Shown here in pieces: positions 21,353 to 51,191 of a DNA stretch of 64,000 bases. The DNA comes from a virus, in the IMG/VR virus record IMGVR_UViG_3300042261_001929, positions 13,902 to 77,901 of that record; one strand, 5' to 3'. The notes beneath the pieces are model-generated. The model was not told the DNA's origin, searched no databases, and saw only the letters and a program-made list of their open reading frames with translations. Position 1 is the stretch's first letter. Each line of letters starts with the position of its first letter. The position numbers and the translations under genes are program-made.

Positions 21353-22738
21353 CTACTCTTTCATCAGTCTTTCCCTTATCTCATCAAAGGTTATGGTCCT
21401 AACGATTTTGCCATTATCGAATACGGTTTCGAGTACATCCTCACCAACAGCATTCAGTGGCACGGTCTTGTATGTACCATCAACCTTGACGAGCTTCATC
21501 AAGCCTGCCTTAGACCTCTTTGCGCGGCTGGTAATTGGATCTTTGTATACATCTCTCCACTGACCATCCACCTTTGCAGCACAGCACTTAAAGGCGAACT
21601 GCATCGTATCCCGATTCAATTTCTGTAACAGCGCGCCGCCCATGCCAAACGCGATATTATCAATGCTCCAACCAGCGTGCTTCATGGCACCCAATATAGC
21701 ATTGATGAGATCCTTGTCTACACCATCACCTTGAATTAAGCGAACGTGCGGATCAAGCACCTTGTAACCCTTATCATTTACAGTGAAACCAAACTTTTCA
21801 CCCAAAGTTTCCAAGCAGGTCATCACAACTTCCAATGGGTTACCACTATCAGGACGAACCACGAGTGTGCCATTACGATTCATGACATCATTCTTCAACG
21901 CGCCGCCCCAGATGTCGCGGCATGCCGCGAATATATCCCATGTATCGGACACACAAGCAATTACACCATTCGGGTACTTCTGCAACATATTTCTCATTGC
22001 ATCGGTTTGGCCATCTCTGAGCCACGCGCTCATTGTGGAATGCTCAGACGCTGGAATAGAGAAGCCCGCCATCTTGGCACCATAGTATTCCCTTGCCATC
22101 CTAAGAGCCGTCATTGTATCCGTGCCTAAGAAGCTCAGCAGGTGAGCAGAACCACCGATAGCAGCGGACTCTACAGAGGAAACACCCCTAAAGCCGAAGT
22201 CATGCAGCTTGAATGGTACACCACCCTTATCGCCGGTCTCCTCAGCATACCAGTCCATGAGCCTTCTTATCTCATAGCTCTGAGTCGCTACCGTACATGG
22301 ATACCACAATTGTACAAGTATGGTCTCCAGCCAAGATGTCAGCCACGGAACTCTTGGATCAGTATTTTCGACAGTCATGAGCACATTCTGTACTGGAATC
22401 TTGGAACCTTCAGGTACCGCTCTGATCTGTACAGGGAGAGCACCATTATATTCATCTAAGATGTACTCCCAACCCTCGCGATTGAAGACACCCTGACCCA
22501 TATGAGCTGTGACTATTTCGTCACCCTCATCAATCTTCTTCTGAGTCACAGCCTTACCAGCAAGGTACTTCTCCAGAATATACTGGAGGCCATAGAACAC
22601 CGTGTAAGGTGCCCATCTACCACTTCTTGCCTCAAAATAAGAAGCAACGAACTGAGTACCCGCTGGATAAAGCGGTGCATGGGAATGCTTATAACTGTCG
22701 GTCAAGTCCAATACAAACTCGTTGTTTTCTTTCATCAT
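21353..22738 (-). CDS. nadV: Nicotinamide phosphoribosyltransferase (NAMPT)
   Basis: TDSYKHSH, LHDFGFRGVSS, SIPASEHS, CVSDTWD, RPDSG, LIQGDG, FGMGGALLQ. Confidence 0.95.
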   Translation of the reverse strand: MMKENNEFVLDLTDSYKHSHAPLYPAGTQFVASYFEARSGRWAPYTVFYGLQYILEKYLAGKAVTQKKIDEGDEIVTAHMGQGVFNREGWEYILDEYNGALPVQIRAVPEGSKIPVQNVLMTVENTDPRVPWLTSWLETILVQLWYPCTVATQSYEIRRLMDWYAEETGDKGGVPFKLHDFGFRGVSSVESAAIGGSAHLLSFLGTDTMTALRMAREYYGAKMAGFSIPASEHSTMSAWLRDGQTDAMRNMLQKYPNGVIACVSDTWDIFAACRDIWGGALKNDVMNRNGTLVVRPDSGNPLEVVMTCLETLGEKFGFTVNDKGYKVLDPHVRLIQGDGVDKDLINAILGAMKHAGWSIDNIAFGMGGALLQKLNRDTMQFAFKCCAAKVDGQWRDVYKDPITSRAKRSKAGLMKLVKVDGTYKTVPLNAVGEDVLETVFDNGKIVRTITFDEIRERLMKE

Positions 22739-26478: not shown

Positions 26479-27502
26479 TTAGTACCTCAACAGCGCACCG
26501 ATTCCACCAAAAATTTTCTCTAATTGAGCGCCTTCCTCAAAACCAGAGTCGATGTACTCTATTTTTGTACCATAGGCAACAGATTCGTTTTCTAATCCTT
26601 TATCTACATTTGATAACAAAAGCGTGTCAACTTTTCCATTTCTCAGCTCTTCCAAGACATTTTTCCCATAAGAAACGCGATCATCATTAGCTAGCCGTCT
26701 GAAAAACGTGCTCATAAGCTTCCTTTGTTTAACTAGCTCTGATTCAGCAAGCAACTCTCCAGCATTACCAATAGTCTCTTTAATGCCCTGAACACCAACA
26801 TAACCGGTATCAATAACACCAAGAATCTTCTTGCGCAGCTCGTGATGTAAGTATTCACCAAGATAAAACTCATTCTTAGTAAGTCCAGGACCACTGATTA
26901 TAATACCAGCAAGATCCTCATCCAAAAGAACTTTATCAATTTTTTCCGCAGAGGATTTATACCACGCGATGATAGCAAGATCCCTATTTTTATCAAATCT
27001 CCTTTGGGACTGTCCACCCCTATCTTGTTTTGATGGAACAATGCTATCTTCATGCAATTTGGTCTCTACATGAACACCTTGTAAAATCGCGAGGTCCATT
27101 TCGTGCAAATCAATGCATACAATAGCATATTTTACACCCTTGTCAATCATGCTATCAATTGGAGAAAAATCAAACTTGCTTCCGCATCGATAAATTATAC
27201 TCGATAATGGCTTTGGAACCTCAATAATTTCCGATATCCAACCATCAGATGTAGGCCCAACAAATATAACCACGTCTCCAGAGGCCATTTTTAGCCTCTC
27301 TAAGGCACTTTTTATTCCGGATGTAACAGAGTTCCTAGTGACCCTAGATTTTATGTTTGAAGCCTTACCAAGCTCATCTCTGAGCATCCCAGATGCTTCG
27401 GGAACCTTTCCATTAGGTACGTATAGGCTGATCAGTTCTGTGCCCGACCCCTTCAAATTTCGCAGTCCGTCAAAGACAGTATTTCTTAGTTTCTGATATC
27501 AT
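26479..27502 (-). CDS. prf1: Archaeal-type peptide chain release factor aRF1, probably needing a +1 frameshift at codon 10/11
   Basis: GTELISLY, ASNIKS, YRCGSKF, GGQS, FGGIGALLRY. RBS GAGGTG plus ATG at 27502 opens a frame that stops at CTT-TGA-C (27475-27469); the main frame is +1. Confidence 0.9.
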
Positions 27503-27645
27503 TACACACACCTCTGTTGTCGATTATTATCTCAAGTCCGTCTAAACTATTTGATCCATTTTTATATGGAATCCGAATATCCTTGATAAATGATGATCCA
27601 AACATATTATCCTCTAAAAATATGTACAGCCATTCTTAGGCTGCA

Positions 27646-28400
27646 TTACTCATCTATTGTTGTACTTTGCTGGCTACTGGTGCCCGCGTCCGCCTTCACT
27701 TTTGCTGCAATGAGTCCCATAAAAATTGGTAGACGTTGATTGATGCTGTCTAGTGATTTAGCATCCTTACAATAGTTCGTCATGGATACAAATCCAACCA
27801 ATGTATATTCCATGATAACGTTCTCATCCCCATCACAGACAGCAATTTTAATCTTATTTGTGTCGGCAGGCTTTATCAAGTAGATAAAGTACGTTATGTT
27901 CTTTTCAACAATGCTGAATACTGATGTAGTATCCATAAAACTTATCCCAATTGGGACGACTTTTTCCCAACGCTCTACAGAGTTCACTAAACGACTTAGT
28001 GATACTTCTCTTTCGCTTTGATCAGTGTTAAACATAGCCGAATCCTCAGCTTCTCGCACTTCAGCCAATATCTTTTCAGTGTCTTCTATCATATATATTG
28101 CTCCATAAATCTGGATCTGATTTTTTGAATATCATCAAGAACATGCTCTTCGGCATATTTCTTTACCGCTGCTTTATATCTAGCTTTGTCCTCTTCATCA
28201 TCACGATAATATCCCCGGATGTCATTGTTCTTGGTGTAATAGGCATACAACAATTTTGCATAGGCCCTTTCTATATATTCCAACATGTCAGCCATGTCGT
28301 CCGCTACGTCAGGAAGCTCACAGCGATATCCCTCACCACACGCTCCCTCGAATCCGAGGGATCTTGCCTCTTTTACCAGAGGATTTTCCGGAATTTCCAT
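27646..28400 (-). CDS. Two hypothetical genes (27646-28092, 28089-28400)
   Basis: Coupled ORFs with overlapping start/stop. Confidence 0.55.
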
Positions 28401-31801: not shown

Positions 31802-31890
31802 AGCCTCTGGAGGGATTCGAACCCCCTACCTCCTGATATCTTGGATCAAGTCCTACAAGTCAGGCGCACTGCCAACAGTGCTTCAGAGGC
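31802..31890 (-). tRNA. tRNA-Thr(UGU) with a 16-nt intron (31838-31853) at 37/38
   Basis: Cloverleaf GCCTCTG/CAGAGGC-U; CCTGA CT TGT A|intron|A TCAGG; bulge-helix-bulge with central helix CTTG/CAAG. Confidence 0.9.
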
Positions 31891-31912: not shown

Positions 31913-31986
31913 AGCCGCTAGAGGTATTCGAACCCTCGACCTATCGGTTACTGGCCGATCGCTCTATCCAACTGAGCTATAGCGGC
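31913..31986 (-). tRNA. tRNA-Thr(AGU); A34, C33
   Basis: GCCGCTA/TAGCGGC-U; ATCGG CC AGT AA CCGAT. Confidence 0.85.
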
Positions 31987-37141: not shown

Positions 37142-37570
37142 TTAAGCCTGTGCTCGACGGCTCGTGCTTAAACCTCTTCCCGCTTCAAGAATTGGCAACT
37201 GTGCTTCCGTTGGTACATATACAATTTCTTTGTCTGCATCAGTTCCGATCTTCTCTGTTATCCAGAGATAGTCCAAATACACTGAATTGTTCTTAAGAGA
37301 GTCACCTATAATTTGATTTGACTGTGCAACTCCTCTTGCCCTCGTTATTTCCGCCTGTGCTAAATAAGTTGCGCTTTCGTTTTTTGCATTTGCCTCAGTC
37401 ACAGCAATCATACGAGAGCTTTGGGCCTCTGCCAATCTTGCCTTTCCTGCTTGCTCAGACGACCATACGTTATACAATGGTAGTGCAATCGCGAGCGCAA
37501 CCAAGACGCCGATTACGACCGCGACCGTACCAATTATCATTCCCGTTGATACTTCACCATTTGTTTTCAT
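37142..37570 (-). CDS. Single-TM coiled-coil protein (SPFH-like C-terminus)
   Basis: TM, then GKARLAEA..RARGVAQSNQIIGDSL..YLW..IVYVPTEAQLPILEAGR. Confidence 0.65.
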   Translation of the reverse strand: MKTNGEVSTGMIIGTVAVVIGVLVALAIALPLYNVWSSEQAGKARLAEAQSSRMIAVTEANAKNESATYLAQAEITRARGVAQSNQIIGDSLKNNSVYLDYLWITEKIGTDADKEIVYVPTEAQLPILEAGRGLSTSRRAQA

Positions 37571-39749
37571 CTATATCGCTTTCCTTTTCCAAATACTTGT
37601 TACCCAACAATTTTATCACGGAATCAATATGTATGCTCAATAGTGCTTCGCGCACACCTACGGATTCACCTGATCTCATCTTGAATAATATTGGACTATA
37701 TTTATACTTTACTGCTTTTAAAGCGAACTCTTTCTGATCATCGATATCACATATTCCCTTGTATGTTTCCTCGATTTCACGTACAAGTGACTCATACACA
37801 CATTTTGCATATTCAAACTTGTCAATAAACATCGGGAAATATGCTAACAGTTCATCGCTTTCGTTTCTCCGTACTACATCCATTATTTTTCTTGGTGTGA
37901 TGCCATTTTTCAAATGGTGTAGGGCCACGTATTTAGGGGCCTTTAACTTTACCCTGTTGAAGTCCTTGTCCCTTATAACAAAACCTTCATACTTTGCGGG
38001 GTCGAGCTTTGCACATGCCTCTACAACCTCGTCTAGGGTGCCTAAATCGAAGGATCTTACGATATCCCAATCATATTGAAGCCCGATCTCTGGATCGACT
38101 TCTTTGAGGGTTTTAAGGCTTCTGACACCATGCAATACCAGCTTTGGATCATCATATGATACCACGATCTGATTTAGGGGTGTACACATCTCAAACATGT
38201 AGGTATATCCTTCTTCAGGCAATTTATACCCCATTTTGGTAAATAGTTTCCAGAACATATGGCTAAATGTGTCCTTTCCCATTGGTGTCATACTAGCCAT
38301 ACCATCGGGAGTACCCGATGTTCCTGCATACCATATTCCATCGTAATTATATAACTGCATCATTGAATTATGTACAAATATTCCATTTGCCATATAGTTC
38401 CCTGTCGTTGTTTGTATATCATATCCCACCCTTCCTGCCGGAAATTCTTTTTTGGTCAGTTTGGGATAAGATATACTGTTCACTTCTATTTTTATGGGTA
38501 CATATTCTTCCTTTCTACTTAATGTATCCATGATATATGGCACGTTTTGAAACCCCTTTGGTAACTTATAACGCAACCCATGTGGTATATATGGAGATAT
38601 AGACTCCCAGAATCTATTTATTTCTCCACAACGTCCTGAATTTATTCGAATGTTCCACCCTTTCGATTGATATACAGTAACATCAACTGAAAATGTTTTC
38701 CTAAGATGATCTGCCAATCTATTGACATCATTTTCAGCAAACCCATTTGTCGCAAATAAGGCACGATCCGCCTGTTTGCTATTATGAGCTAAACTCCCAT
38801 CATCCATGTACCACTTCGCGAATGAAAATGCATCCATCCAATCAATATTAGATGGTATGCACTTTTTTCTTCCATTTGGGTACCACTCATCTCTTAACGT
38901 TTTTAATATCCGATATGTCTTTGAAGTAATTTGGGTTATATCAGAACCATATCCAGATATGATCTTTCGTGAACTGAGATATGAATCACCCAAGTATTGT
39001 TTTGCCATATCCTCGAAATCGGGATATTTTGATAAGTGCCCCTCTTGAAATTTACAGTTTGTACCATTATAAATTATGCTTCCATCACCGAGCAGCGATG
39101 ATCGTATATAATGCATAGCTGCCTTGTGTGGTGACAACAACACAGATGTTAATATATCGTCTGTTTGGATATTACTTGCTAATTTGTAGCATCCGTTATT
39201 ATAAATTTCATGATTTGTTGTGACCCGAAGTCTCTTAGATGACATATTTTTATGTGGTCCGGGTCTGTCTTTTAAATTGATGTCTACCCAATTTGTTCTT
39301 CCCTTAGACTTTGACCTTCCAATAACATATGTTGGTACGGGATTTCCGTTAGAGTCAATACCAATTAGCTTCGGAGACAGTGATTTGTTAACGATGTCAC
39401 CAATTTTAACTATGCCACCATCCCATAAATTCAATGACGTGTCGTAATAAAAACAACCATCAAGCTTTTCTAATATGCTCGCGGTACTCCAGTCTATAGG
39501 AGCAGCATGTCCCTCATGCACATTGAAGAATTTCTTATAAGGATAAGATATTACTCTCCAATCCTTATCGCGATCCAATATGATCCCTCTACATTCTTGT
39601 ACTAAAGGATCGCCCAATGGTGAATCGATTTGACCATACTTAAATGAAATCAAATTCGGATGAGAGGTATGGGATCTGGATTTTATTCCATACTTAATCC
39701 CCAGATCTCCAATAGAACCAGACCGCAAAAATTCTTGAATTTTCAACAT
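37554..39749 (-). CDS. rnl1: T4 Rnl1-like RNA ligase with a LAGLIDADG intein
   Basis: ECRGIIL..KFFN..EKLDG|intein|SMM..FEM..EGFV..RVKLK. Confidence 0.85.
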   Translation of the reverse strand: MLKIQEFLRSGSIGDLGIKYGIKSRSHTSHPNLISFKYGQIDSPLGDPLVQECRGIILDRDKDWRVISYPYKKFFNVHEGHAAPIDWSTASILEKLDGCFYYDTSLNLWDGGIVKIGDIVNKSLSPKLIGIDSNGNPVPTYVIGRSKSKGRTNWVDINLKDRPGPHKNMSSKRLRVTTNHEIYNNGCYKLASNIQTDDILTSVLLSPHKAAMHYIRSSLLGDGSIIYNGTNCKFQEGHLSKYPDFEDMAKQYLGDSYLSSRKIISGYGSDITQITSKTYRILKTLRDEWYPNGRKKCIPSNIDWMDAFSFAKWYMDDGSLAHNSKQADRALFATNGFAENDVNRLADHLRKTFSVDVTVYQSKGWNIRINSGRCGEINRFWESISPYIPHGLRYKLPKGFQNVPYIMDTLSRKEEYVPIKIEVNSISYPKLTKKEFPAGRVGYDIQTTTGNYMANGIFVHNSMMQLYNYDGIWYAGTSGTPDGMASMTPMGKDTFSHMFWKLFTKMGYKLPEEGYTYMFEMCTPLNQIVVSYDDPKLVLHGVRSLKTLKEVDPEIGLQYDWDIVRSFDLGTLDEVVEACAKLDPAKYEGFVIRDKDFNRVKLKAPKYVALHHLKNGITPRKIMDVVRRNESDELLAYFPMFIDKFEYAKCVYESLVREIEETYKGICDIDDQKEFALKAVKYKYSPILFKMRSGESVGVREALLSIHIDSVIKLLGNKYLEKESDIDENKW
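38367..39455 (-). mobile_element. Intein (363 aa) with a LAGLIDADG homing endonuclease
   Basis: Begins CFYYDT right after KLDG; block B VTTNHEI; SLLGDGS and WYMDDGS; ends FVHN followed by S. Confidence 0.9.
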
Positions 39750-45942: not shown

Positions 45943-45948
45943 ACGAAG

Positions 45949-46023
45949 CGGATCTGAAGGGATTTGAACCCCTGACCTATTGGTTCGTAGCCAATTGCTC
46001 TATCCAGACTGAGCCACAGATCC
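45949..46023 (-). tRNA. tRNA-Arg(ACG); A34
   Basis: GGATCTG/CAGATCC-G; ATTGG CT ACG AA CCAAT. Confidence 0.9.
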
Positions 46024-46276: not shown

Positions 46277-47089
46277 TTACTCATACCTCTTGTTATACAT
46301 CCTTCTGACGACATCAAAGGTTTTTTGATACGCCGGTAGCCTGAAATACCCTTCAGCAAGGCACGCATGATAAATATCGTATATATGCTCTGGTGTCAAT
46401 CTTTCAAGCTCTTCTTCCAGTGTATCTGGATCGCTGCCCAATAACATTTTCATCGGGCGAATGATTATATGGGCCTCGTTGCTCACAATGAAATCCACAT
46501 ATTCATGGACATTTCGTATGCCCGCAAAATTAATTCTCGATTCAATTGCAGCATTCAGCCCCCCGTATTTCCCATAGTAAACAAAGAACGCATCATTTTT
46601 GATGCCCCTTTGCTTCATGATATCGATTAATTTGCGTTCGTGCGTGCCTGTGATATTAACGTCATCAACAAAGATGAGAAGCTTTCCTTCTAAGAACTCT
46701 ATGTTCATGTAGAAGTCATCGTTATTTATCAAAGCCTCGCGCTTTTCCTTGTTCAAGAATCCATAATCGTTAATATAAGACACTTTCCTGTGGATTGTAT
46801 CGTATTCCACTGGAGATCCATTTTCATGAACCAGTTGCTCATTTAACCGGTTCACAAAGTACTTTGTCATTATGGTTGCCGCGTTTGGTACATGGTTGTA
46901 CGGTGATGGAATCACTACCACCCGATTAGCAAGCAGCACGGCCATATGCTTCATAAAGAAGGCATCCGCCAACCTCTTCCCGAACTCCTTCGCGATTTCA
47001 ACACTCCCGAATTTCAGCATAGAATATTCTCTTGGTTGAAACCCAAACCCCTCGTCACCAAAATGATGTAAAGCAAAGCTCTCATGCAT
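46277..47089 (-). CDS. ComF-like phosphoribosyltransferase
   Basis: YSMLKFGS..PSPY..PNAA..LIFVDDVNITGTHE (PRPP-binding loop). Confidence 0.75.
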   Translation of the reverse strand: MHESFALHHFGDEGFGFQPREYSMLKFGSVEIAKEFGKRLADAFFMKHMAVLLANRVVVIPSPYNHVPNAATIMTKYFVNRLNEQLVHENGSPVEYDTIHRKVSYINDYGFLNKEKREALINNDDFYMNIEFLEGKLLIFVDDVNITGTHERKLIDIMKQRGIKNDAFFVYYGKYGGLNAAIESRINFAGIRNVHEYVDFIVSNEAHIIIRPMKMLLGSDPDTLEEELERLTPEHIYDIYHACLAEGYFRLPAYQKTFDVVRRMYNKRYE

Positions 47090-47795: not shown

Positions 47796-48442
47796 CTACA
47801 ATCGTATTGTAAACGCTGCATATTTCCAGCTATTTATAATTTCGTCTGGTTTTAAAAACCTTGGAGCAAGATCTTTTGGGTATACAACTAATCCCCAGCT
47901 ATCGGTGTTCCAATATTTTTCGGACAGGCACCTAACGACCATCCATCTTGTCATGTCCTCAGCCGTAACATCTCCCATCAATACAATGTTTCGATCGCGA
48001 TAATTGGGCACTTCTTCCCAAGTCCCGTCCTTCCGAGGAATTATTCGGTTACCGTTCTCACTTGATCTTATCGTAAAGTCATCACCAATTACCTTCTCTT
48101 TAGTCCTAAGCTTGATTCGCGAATTTAAACGCTCTATCTGCTCATATGAGAACTTGGGCTTCTTCTGAGGGAATAACCCGTTTAAAAGATTCAATATCAT
48201 ATTGGTTCGCCCTCCGAGGTGTAATCATAATCATATACATCTTCTGAGTCGAGACGGTTTACTATCTCTTGGTAAGATTCGCGCGATATAATACTTCGTT
48301 CTACAAGGCTATCCAAGAGATCCCCCAAAAGCGCCTTCCCTTCCCAAGCACTCTCAGGATATCTCCCATAAAGTTTATCATACTCTACGCAAAATTTTAC
48401 AATGTCATCCAACTTTATAAGAATATCAGTCATTACTATCAA
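47796..48442 (-). CDS. Two hypothetical genes (47796-48200, 48197-48442)
   Basis: Coupled ORFs. Confidence 0.5.
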
Positions 48443-49145
48443 CCAGCTTTATCTTCCCATCTTCAATAATCACATACCGGAACCTGTCTCCACCAAATCC
48501 CTCTTTAGAATACGGGTCAATGACATAAAAATTTTCCAATTTTCCTACGCTCTTCTCAATCCATGCCGGAGGAGTGTGCCCAACAACCTGAACTATGCTT
48601 TTGTACGGCAAGTCGTCAGGCTTTGGCCTATACCACAGTGGGCTATTGTCCTCCCACAAGTCCCTTAACTTCCTCGTGTTTAGGTAATGGGCTAAGCAAG
48701 TTGACGTGCTAGGAAAATCCTCTGTATAAAGATGACTATTAATCATTTTAATAAGTGGATCTATGTTTTGGAAATAGTAATCAGTTGATATTCCAGCATG
48801 TGTTATCAATATGTTATGGACCTTATGTTTCGGAAATTCATCAACGTGGGCAGCCATCGTAAACATGGAGCTTATTGAAACTATTTTATCTCTCGTTTCG
48901 GTATCATATACATTTTGCGGCCAAATTGCCTTGTTCAACGGCACCGCTGCATCATGATTTCCCCACAAAAGTTCTGCTTCATTTTTGATAAGTAATGCAA
49001 TGCATTCGAGGCCCTGATCTCCCACATCGATGATATCACCGGCATGTATTAACCGGTCAACCCCGATCTCATAACCAGAGTCCTTTAGTGCATTTTTAAT
49101 TAAATGTGGTTGTCCATGACAATCACTTATTACAAGAGTTCTCAT
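48426..49145 (-). CDS. Calcineurin-like metallophosphoesterase
   Basis: SDCHG, GDIIDVG, GNHD, HAG, VGHT. Confidence 0.9.
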   Translation of the reverse strand: MRTLVISDCHGQPHLIKNALKDSGYEIGVDRLIHAGDIIDVGDQGLECIALLIKNEAELLWGNHDAAVPLNKAIWPQNVYDTETRDKIVSISSMFTMAAHVDEFPKHKVHNILITHAGISTDYYFQNIDPLIKMINSHLYTEDFPSTSTCLAHYLNTRKLRDLWEDNSPLWYRPKPDDLPYKSIVQVVGHTPPAWIEKSVGKLENFYVIDPYSKEGFGGDRFRYVIIEDGKIKLVDSND

Positions 49146-50258: not shown

Positions 50259-51191
50259 TCACTCTTCAAAATGCCTAGCCAATTCATAATACATCATCAG
50301 GTGTTCTTCTACTACTATATAGCGATACTTTTCCATTTCTCTTACAGGAATAAGTATGATATCATCAGCATCGTCACCCGCACGCGGTTCACCTATTGCA
50401 TCAGCTACAAAGAACATGGTCATTACCATGTCGGATTTGTACCGCCAATCATTCACAAAGAATGAACCAAGATATCGAATTGTATCGTCTTTTGCCTCAA
50501 GATCAGCTTCCTCCTTGCATTCCTTAGCGGCCTGTACTTCTGCAAACTTATTTTTGTATTGACCTTTTCGATCAGGTTCAATATGACCACCGATAAATCT
50601 GATCTTACCATTGTCAGAGTCCTTTTTGATCATTACGAGCGTCGCAGCGCCTTCATGATATATGATTGGTGCTATATCAACGGTAGGAACCACCCGCACA
50701 TACTGATTTTGCGTGGCCCAAATTGCACCCCTTCTAAAGTTTTCACTGCCATCATCAGGGTTGCATGCTACCTGCTTTCTTTGAGATGTACCTGATTGGG
50801 AATTCATCTGTTGGGAGAACTCCTCAACTTGATATTTACCAAAGTAGTGAGGCAAGAAGCTATCCCTACCACCATACAGTTTGACTTTAGATCCTGGAGG
50901 AATATTTTTCGCTATCATTCGATCAAGTTCTTTCGACCATTCCACATCATCTCTTCGATCCATTATGGAGAGGACAACCACTTTTGGGAACCTATATTTT
51001 ATCATGTTCCGCCTCATCTCGATACTTAATGGGTCTGTATGATTTGGTCGTACTGGAGACTCACCTAAAACGACAATTACCCCATCGTTTTCAGCCATCA
51101 TGTACTTGATTAGCTCCTCATGTCCAACCGTTAGTGACGAGACCTGACATCTCATCACCGCAACACCAACGTTAGATCTTAACATAGCCAT
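50259..51191 (-). CDS. nadM: Bifunctional NMN adenylyltransferase / Nudix hydrolase (NadM-Nudix type)
   Basis: VMRCQ..LTVGH..DPLSIEMR..LYGGRDSF..SGT..R; Nudix box GGHIE..AAKECKEEADL..AGDDA. Confidence 0.85.
   Translation of the reverse strand: MAMLRSNVGVAVMRCQVSSLTVGHEELIKYMMAENDGVIVVLGESPVRPNHTDPLSIEMRRNMIKYRFPKVVVLSIMDRRDDVEWSKELDRMIAKNIPPGSKVKLYGGRDSFLPHYFGKYQVEEFSQQMNSQSGTSQRKQVACNPDDGSENFRRGAIWATQNQYVRVVPTVDIAPIIYHEGAATLVMIKKDSDNGKIRFIGGHIEPDRKGQYKNKFAEVQAAKECKEEADLEAKDDTIRYLGSFFVNDWRYKSDMVMTMFFVADAIGEPRAGDDADDIILIPVREMEKYRYIVVEEHLMMYYELARHFEE

Follow-up and report, generated by a model that had tools for sequence, protein, structure and literature searches.

The release factor gene of a tailed virus with a likely archaeal host is, very probably, under the control of a conserved programmed +1 ribosomal frameshift at a YUU codon followed directly by a stop codon, the factor being made in full only after the slip. 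From its sequence, the gene is predicted to encode a compact archaeal-type class-I release factor (aRF1) with release activity. It lies in the 64,000-nucleotide stretch of viral DNA analysed here (the window), which is part of a 77.9-kb IMG/VR record estimated to be about 56% complete. An earlier note on the window had proposed +1 recoding at CTT-TGA-C in this gene, and the comparative evidence from relatives presented below supports that proposal.

Reading frames of the viral aRF1 locus

On the minus strand, a Shine-Dalgarno (SD) site, GAGGTG (27509-27514), is located 6 nt (tgtgta) 5' of an ATG that opens a short 0-frame ORF (27470-27502). This ORF reads ATG (27502-27500) ATA TCA GAA ACT AAG AAA TAC TGT CTT TGA C, that is, ATG plus nine codons and a TGA (MISETKKYCL-stop). 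Its last sense codon, CTT (27475-27473), the TGA (27472-27470) and the following C (27469) make up the putative shift site CTT TGA C (27469-27475), in which the stop codon would occupy the A site. Directly 5' of the slip codon lie the Tyr-Cys codons TAC TGT (27476-27481), which are conserved and constitute a candidate stimulator. The aRF1 body (26479-27471, minus strand; 330 codons plus TAA) is in the +1 frame. Read from GAC (27471), this frame gives DGLRNLKGSGTELISLY and continues to the TAA at 26479. The layout of the locus therefore has two parts, a short 0-frame ORF that runs to a stop and a body in the +1 frame without a start of its own.

A TAA TGA that overlaps the ATG at 27502 closes the +1 frame on its upstream side. 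The first ATG, GTG or TTG codon of the aRF1 frame is a TTG (27454-27456, minus strand), the sole canonical +1-frame start near the 5' end; it lies 14 nt past the TGA, has no SD site in front of it and would give a product beginning MKGSGTEL. The only SD-backed start is the ATG that stands one base out of frame with the aRF1 body. The SD site of the short frame is meaningful because SD-like 4-mers are enriched 5' of the long ATG ORFs of this virus (37 of 64, 58%) compared with internal ATGs (16%). On the letters, every part of the layout described in the earlier note was correct (ribosome-binding site, ATG at 27502, UGA at codon 11, aRF1 in +1), and reading the frames likewise bore out its statements that no ATG or GTG precedes the TTG at 27456 and that the frame is closed upstream.

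The region in front of the gene contains a further putative gene, a 39-codon ATG ORF in the third frame (27486-27605, minus strand), which overlaps the aRF1 SD site and ATG and occupies most of the 143-nt spacer upstream of aRF1. The sequence CCATATAAAA, present upstream of aRF1 in the window and in one of the relatives described below (L002), was considered as a promoter motif and dropped, as it was not enriched.

The frameshifted product resembles archaeal aRF1 across the junction

When TGA-C is read as one step, the frameshifted product has 340 residues (P0121). Pfam eRF1_1, eRF1_2 and eRF1_3 match its body at 31.9, 90.7 and 46 bits, respectively, all above the cut-offs. The motifs SNIKS, YRCGSKF (YxCxxxF) and GSGTEL fall in alignment columns that are invariant with cellular aRF1, and the catalytic GGQ (G162, G163 and Q164) lies within an invariant RGGQS. 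Identity to a Methanoperedens aRF1 is 39%, with a gap of ~50 residues at the CxxC...CxxC insert; the C domain is present in the compact viral proteins without the ~50-residue Cys-rich insert of many cellular aRF1.

The shift had been expected to restore the first helix of aRF1, and this is what the alignments and the model indicate. The BLASTP alignment to the Methanoperedens aRF1 begins at residue 7 and phmmer alignments to solved a/eRF1 structures begin at residues 8-9, in each case crossing the junction (residues 10/11). In the multiple alignment, KYCL-DGLRNLKGSG stands opposite KKTLEALRDKRGRG of cellular aRF1. An AlphaFold model computed on the multiple alignment (mean pLDDT 89.5) has one helix over residues 4-14, the first helix being shorter in viral than in cellular aRF1.

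The layout recurs in diverged relatives

DNA evidence for the frameshift layout comes from four loci, the window and three relatives (L002, L003 and L036), whose aRF1 proteins show about 60-65% identity. In L002, an IMG/VR contig of 76.6 kb, the short frame reads ATG ACC ATT AAC AAC TAC TGT CTT TAG C (MTINNYCL-stop; L002:2970-2996). The corresponding sequences are ATG GAC GAC GAA AAT AGC AAC TAT TGT TTT TAG C in L003 (MDDENSNYCF-stop; L003:512-544) and ATG GCA TAC TGT TTT TGA T in L036 (MAYCF-stop; L036:1133-1150).

At all four loci the aRF1 body is in the +1 frame relative to the short frame, and the distance from the stop to the GGN ACN GAR codons of the conserved GxGTE is exactly 25 nt. Each ATG is preceded, at 5-7 nt, by an SD site of 5-6 nt (GAGGTG, GGTGA, GGTGA and GAGGAG in the window, L002, L003 and L036, respectively). 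The short frames span 5 to 10 codons and differ in sequence up to their three final codons, which encode Tyr-Cys-Leu/Phe (TAY TGT YTT) throughout. The slip codon is CTT or TTT, both re-pairing on UUU, and CUU-U or UUU-U is found in four out of four cases. As the 0-frame stop, TGA and TAG are each found twice, and the base that follows is C in three loci and T in one (L036).

The recurrence in three diverged relatives places the arrangement of the site far beyond chance. Conservation of the site among relatives, raised in the earlier note as a point to be checked, held in part: the same layout is present at the four loci, none of which has unrelated sequence at the site, whereas L004 and about eight proteins have a continuous frame.

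Translation of the +1 frame from the junction

No ATG, GTG or TTG occurs in the +1 frame of L002 until codon 30, or in that of L003 within 100 codons; in both, the conserved GxGTELIxLYVPxGK precedes any canonical +1 start. Coding constraint was assessed over the 32 codons after the junction, with differences summed over the six pairs of the four loci. Synonymous and non-synonymous differences amounted to 76:64 in the +1 frame (the aRF1 body), versus 15:129 and 12:124 in the other two frames, a pattern that indicates that the +1 frame is under selection beginning at the junction. Because of this selection, and because a conserved N-terminus precedes any canonical start, the aRF1 protein appears to be made from the junction onward. 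The TTG at 27456 was rejected as the start of the gene, since its product would be shorter than every relative, an equivalent codon is absent in L002 and L003, and it has no SD site.

Three explanations without a ribosomal frameshift were weighed against these data. An indel introduced in sequencing or assembly is almost certainly not the cause, nor is pseudogene decay: one extra base in one sequence would look like this, but the same arrangement is found at four independent loci, and the body of 330 codons is undamaged, retains every catalytic motif and has synonymous changes in excess. Moreover, an independently assembled contig (X3), obtained from a lake water run of a different sample and study, is identical to window positions 26971-27800 (0 differences, 0 gaps). 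The assembly indel that the earlier note had wished to see excluded was thus looked for with a negative outcome, given the identity of X3 and the layout in three diverged relatives. A different possibility is that there is no frameshift and that the short frame is a regulatory uORF, aRF1 starting alone in the +1 frame, possibly by termination-reinitiation, at a non-canonical or downstream codon, in the window the TTG at 27456. The location of this TTG 14 nt after the TGA is in keeping with such a scheme, as is a GTG 18 codons into L036. We nevertheless regard it as improbable, as the start position is not common to the loci, L002 and L003 have no start ahead of the conserved N-terminus, purifying selection is seen on the +1 frame right from the junction, the TTG has no SD site, and no near-cognate codon upstream of the junction is shared in the +1 frame.

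Correction at the RNA level, by which RNA polymerase would slip in the T run and drop one U so that some mRNAs are in frame, is highly improbable. T5 runs are present at the site in L003 and L036, but the window and L002 have only T3, which is too short for a slippage-prone run, and the conserved 0-frame stop right after the run would then be purposeless. The metatranscriptome data provided one contig of 226 nt inside the aRF1 gene (26844-27069); this sole RNA-library contig lies off the site and could be carried-over DNA.

Shift signal and proposed mechanism

Under a ribosomal +1 frameshift, translation would start at the SD-backed ATG at 27502 and, after ten codons, would place peptidyl-tRNA-Leu on CUU in the P site and UGA in the A site. 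Two outcomes would then be open. Either aRF1, from the host or the virus, would terminate and a 10-residue peptide would result, or the tRNA would slip by +1, from CUU to UUU, GAC would be read and translation would go on in the +1 frame to give the 340-residue protein. The stop in the A site would provide the time for the P-site tRNA to re-pair one base forward. Because stop recognition would decide the outcome, the yield of viral aRF1 should fall with high termination activity and rise with low termination activity. We infer the slip itself, its efficiency and the feedback by aRF1, the last of these following from the layout. From the intact NIKS, YxCxxxF and GGQ motifs, viral or host aRF1 would be expected to read the stop codon of the site, as feedback needs. 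The even split of this stop between TGA and TAG, two loci each, is consistent with a sensor that recognises every stop (aRF1) rather than just one (RF2); variation between TGA and TAG is as expected with an omnipotent aRF1 in this role.

A C after the stop is a weak termination context, and TGA-C is among the rarest stop contexts of the virus (2 of 97 crude ORFs). The earlier note was right in its caveat that an internal SD stimulator as in prfB is not evident: an SD-like element ~3 nt upstream of the slip codon is found at none of the four loci, which read A(A/C)(A/T) TAY TGT, without a G-rich run. No conserved RNA structure was detected at the site either (alifold consensus -2.6 kcal/mol; single-sequence fold z-scores -0.2 to +0.7). 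As both the SD-like stimulator and a conserved structure are absent, the efficiency of frameshifting could be low. The only candidate stimulator is TAY TGT, invariant in all four loci. The pattern TGTYTTTRR is unenriched in the window (13 matches versus 8.4 expected).

The main functional rival to feedback is a real frameshift that works as a fixed attenuator, keeping viral aRF1 at a low constant level with no sensing of termination activity. That a stimulatory element was not found would be consistent with this, and so would the relatives that manage without the site. On balance, a fixed attenuator seems unlikely: a 0-frame stop is kept in the A site in all four loci while its identity varies (TGA or TAG), a rare sense codon would do equally well, and the gene encodes the very factor that reads this codon, as in prfB and Mimivirus R726.

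A more comprehensive reading can be offered tentatively, as a possibility that joins the signal, its role and its history. In it, UAY UGU YUU plus a stop would form a self-contained 10-nt, SD-independent +1 signal for archaeal ribosomes that titrates total aRF1 activity; the virus would make its compact aRF1 only when the termination capacity of the host drops; and the site, present in the ancestor of the viral clade, would have been lost repeatedly since then. Possible triggers would be shut-off of the host, an overload of translation or a defence that hits termination.

Distribution of the frameshift site

A protein search retrieved a tight clade of ~20 short aRF1 (304-339 residues, 51-62% identity), while cellular aRF1 in the same search have ~415 residues and 35-43% identity. 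In a rapidly built maximum-likelihood tree, the viral proteins form one clade that excludes ten cellular aRF1 (SH-aLRT support 100). The frameshift loci fall in two of its subclades. One contains the window and L036, beside the open-frame protein P0001. In the other, L002 and L003 belong to a group of eight (support 100) whose remaining members are all gene calls cut at the N-terminus, the outcome to be expected where a gene caller fails at the site. Judging from their N-termini, the cut gene calls P0004, P0005, P0007, P0011 and P0016-P0018 are likely to represent further frameshift cases.

Open-frame members (L004, P0006, P0008-P0010, P0012, P0014 and P0015) lie between the two frameshift subclades. 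The frameshift device is dispensable, given that some members of the viral clade manage with an uninterrupted frame. The site is either old and lost several times, as in prfB, or has arisen more than once. P0012, which starts with MIVFS, and P0009, in which TIFD occurs, both match the +1 reading of the site letters (T-V/I-F-S/D) and hint at loss of the site through gain of an in-frame start.

Searches of further collections added little to this set. IMG/VR scans with the protein, the clade alignment, three relatives and a DNA pattern of the site returned only L002 besides the window's own record; a scan of species genomes gave only distant cellular aRF1, and an aRF1 match was absent from the 'phages' collection. 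As a control, ~45 cellular archaeal aRF1 loci were inspected, and in these an in-frame start is located 11 or more codons 5' of the equivalent point, with L067 as the sole exception. L067, a metagenome contig of 1.8 kb, has a DPANN-like aRF1 of the RHTEL type without an in-frame start (L067:60-130): GGTGAT is followed after 9 nt by ATG AGC ATA TCT TAA A and then by the aRF1 body in the -1 frame. As a single sequence, it could be a recoded aRF1, a gene with a non-AUG (ATC) start, or an indel. Three hot-spring loci (L010, L012 and L013), considered as start-less aRF1, were discarded; a conserved TTG (MSEK...) serves as their start, and they are ordinary loci.

Two other kinds of interrupted release factor gene were observed. 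In L069 and L070 (Ga0209542 and Ga0209541 contigs), aRF1 carries a long insertion, in frame and over 340 residues in length, whose end, ...VVHN, directly abuts SARF and which looks like an intein at the GGQ motif. A eukaryote-type eRF1 (L075:1500-1545) contains a 24-nt GT...AG interruption with a TAG just before the GTS motif; this resembles a very small intron of the ciliate type and has no connection with the frameshift.

Virus, host and neighbouring genes

The virus is tailed and likely has an archaeal host, probably a methanogen. The closest match to its large terminase, at 46% identity, comes from a virus assigned to Methanomicrobiales, with bacterial phages at 39% or less, and the metagenomes in which it occurs are from freshwater and lakes. 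All three stop codons are in use. The virus has 22 tRNA genes. One of them, tRNA-Thr(UGU) (31802-31890, minus strand), found by Rfam and missed by ARAGORN, contains a 16-nt intron at position 37/38. Introns of this type, which is archaeal/eukaryal, are processed by the archaeal splicing endonuclease, and the intron argues for an archaeal host. Two more viral tRNAs, Thr-AGT and Arg-ACG (31913-31986 and 45948-46023, minus strand), have A at position 34. This is unusual, as archaea normally use G34, and with these tRNAs the virus may bring decoding capacity absent from its host.

A gene for a T4 Rnl1-type RNA ligase (37554-39749, minus strand) is interrupted by a LAGLIDADG endonuclease domain, which is either an intein or a homing endonuclease insertion. 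The ligase, a metallophosphatase gene (48426-49145) and the tRNA set jointly resemble a tRNA-repair kit. Genes for NAMPT, a ComF-like PRTase and a NUDIX protein (21353-22738, 46277-47089 and 50259-51191, minus strand) look like a set for viral NAD salvage.

Comparison with known systems

If confirmed, the viral site would make a strong case, on comparative grounds, that regulatory +1 frameshifting exists in the archaeal domain, and it would imply that archaeal viruses tune translation termination in addition to carrying an RNA ligase and many tRNAs. The 10-nt cassette would then be a reporter of termination activity in archaea, and the Tyr-Cys codons that replace the SD site would point to a different kind of stimulator.

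The textbook case of such control is bacterial prfB, in which RF2 regulates its own synthesis through a +1 frameshift at CUU UGA C. The heptamer is identical to that of the window. In both systems a release factor gene is cut early by a stop that its own product should read, a C follows this stop, slippage of the P-site tRNA-Leu from CUU to UUU (proposed for the virus) sets the new frame, and the site is found in many, not all, members of the gene family. The differences are also clear. The viral factor is of the archaeal type and non-homologous to RF2, its gene is viral and the ribosome would be archaeal. The site is placed at codons 5-10 in viral aRF1, versus around codon 26 in prfB; the stop can also be UAG and the slip codon UUU; and the SD-like stimulator located 3 nt upstream in prfB has no counterpart. 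The viral site is thus prfB-like in layout, not a copy of the prfB signal.

Eukaryotic +1 sites at a stop or hungry codon include antizyme (UCC UGA U) and yeast Ty1 (CUU AGG C). There, too, a P-site tRNA slips +1 as a slow A-site codon waits, and CUU is known to be slip-prone. However, these sites sense polyamines or a rare tRNA, not a termination factor, and antizyme has a downstream pseudoknot, whereas none was seen at viral aRF1.

Outside bacteria, Mimivirus and Megavirus provide the one known case of a release factor gene with a stop-dependent +1 frameshift. Both CUU UAG C and CUU UAA C have been shown to be working +1 sites in the release factor genes of Mimivirus and Megavirus (PMC3521657). 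Jeudy et al. (2012) proposed autoregulation of Mimivirus R726 and Megavirus mg280; besides these, the motif was known only in bacterial release factors, and the authors asked whether archaea and eukaryotes had lost it (PMC3521657). R726 and mg280 resemble the genes described here in being virus-encoded, in specifying an a/eRF1-type factor and in depending on +1 slippage, with CUU UAG C or CUU UAA C as the site, the R726 heptamer being identical to that of L002. By contrast, they additionally need readthrough, their frameshift lies further inside the gene and their hosts are eukaryotes (amoebae). The Mimivirus and Megavirus proteins form a deep separate clade, whereas the viral aRF1 studied here cluster by Halobacteriota aRF1 (38-46% identity).

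For archaea, a 2021 review of recoding gives one demonstrated -1 case, Saccharolobus fucA1, and shifts in the tail-chaperone genes of tailed haloarchaeal viruses, among them one in HSTV-2 suggested to be +1; a release factor or aRF1 frameshift is absent from it (PMC8211752), and our literature search found no paper describing +1 frameshift control of aRF1. The fucA1 and tail-chaperone shifts have archaeal ribosomes in common with the viral aRF1 site, and some occur in tailed archaeal viruses, but they yield two structural or enzyme products and involve no translation factor, stop-dependent site or feedback loop. If the proposed control is true, it would be the first regulatory +1 frameshift known for archaeal translation and the third independent instance of release factor self-control by frameshifting, the same regulatory idea appearing in a third, unrelated setting with a different signal.
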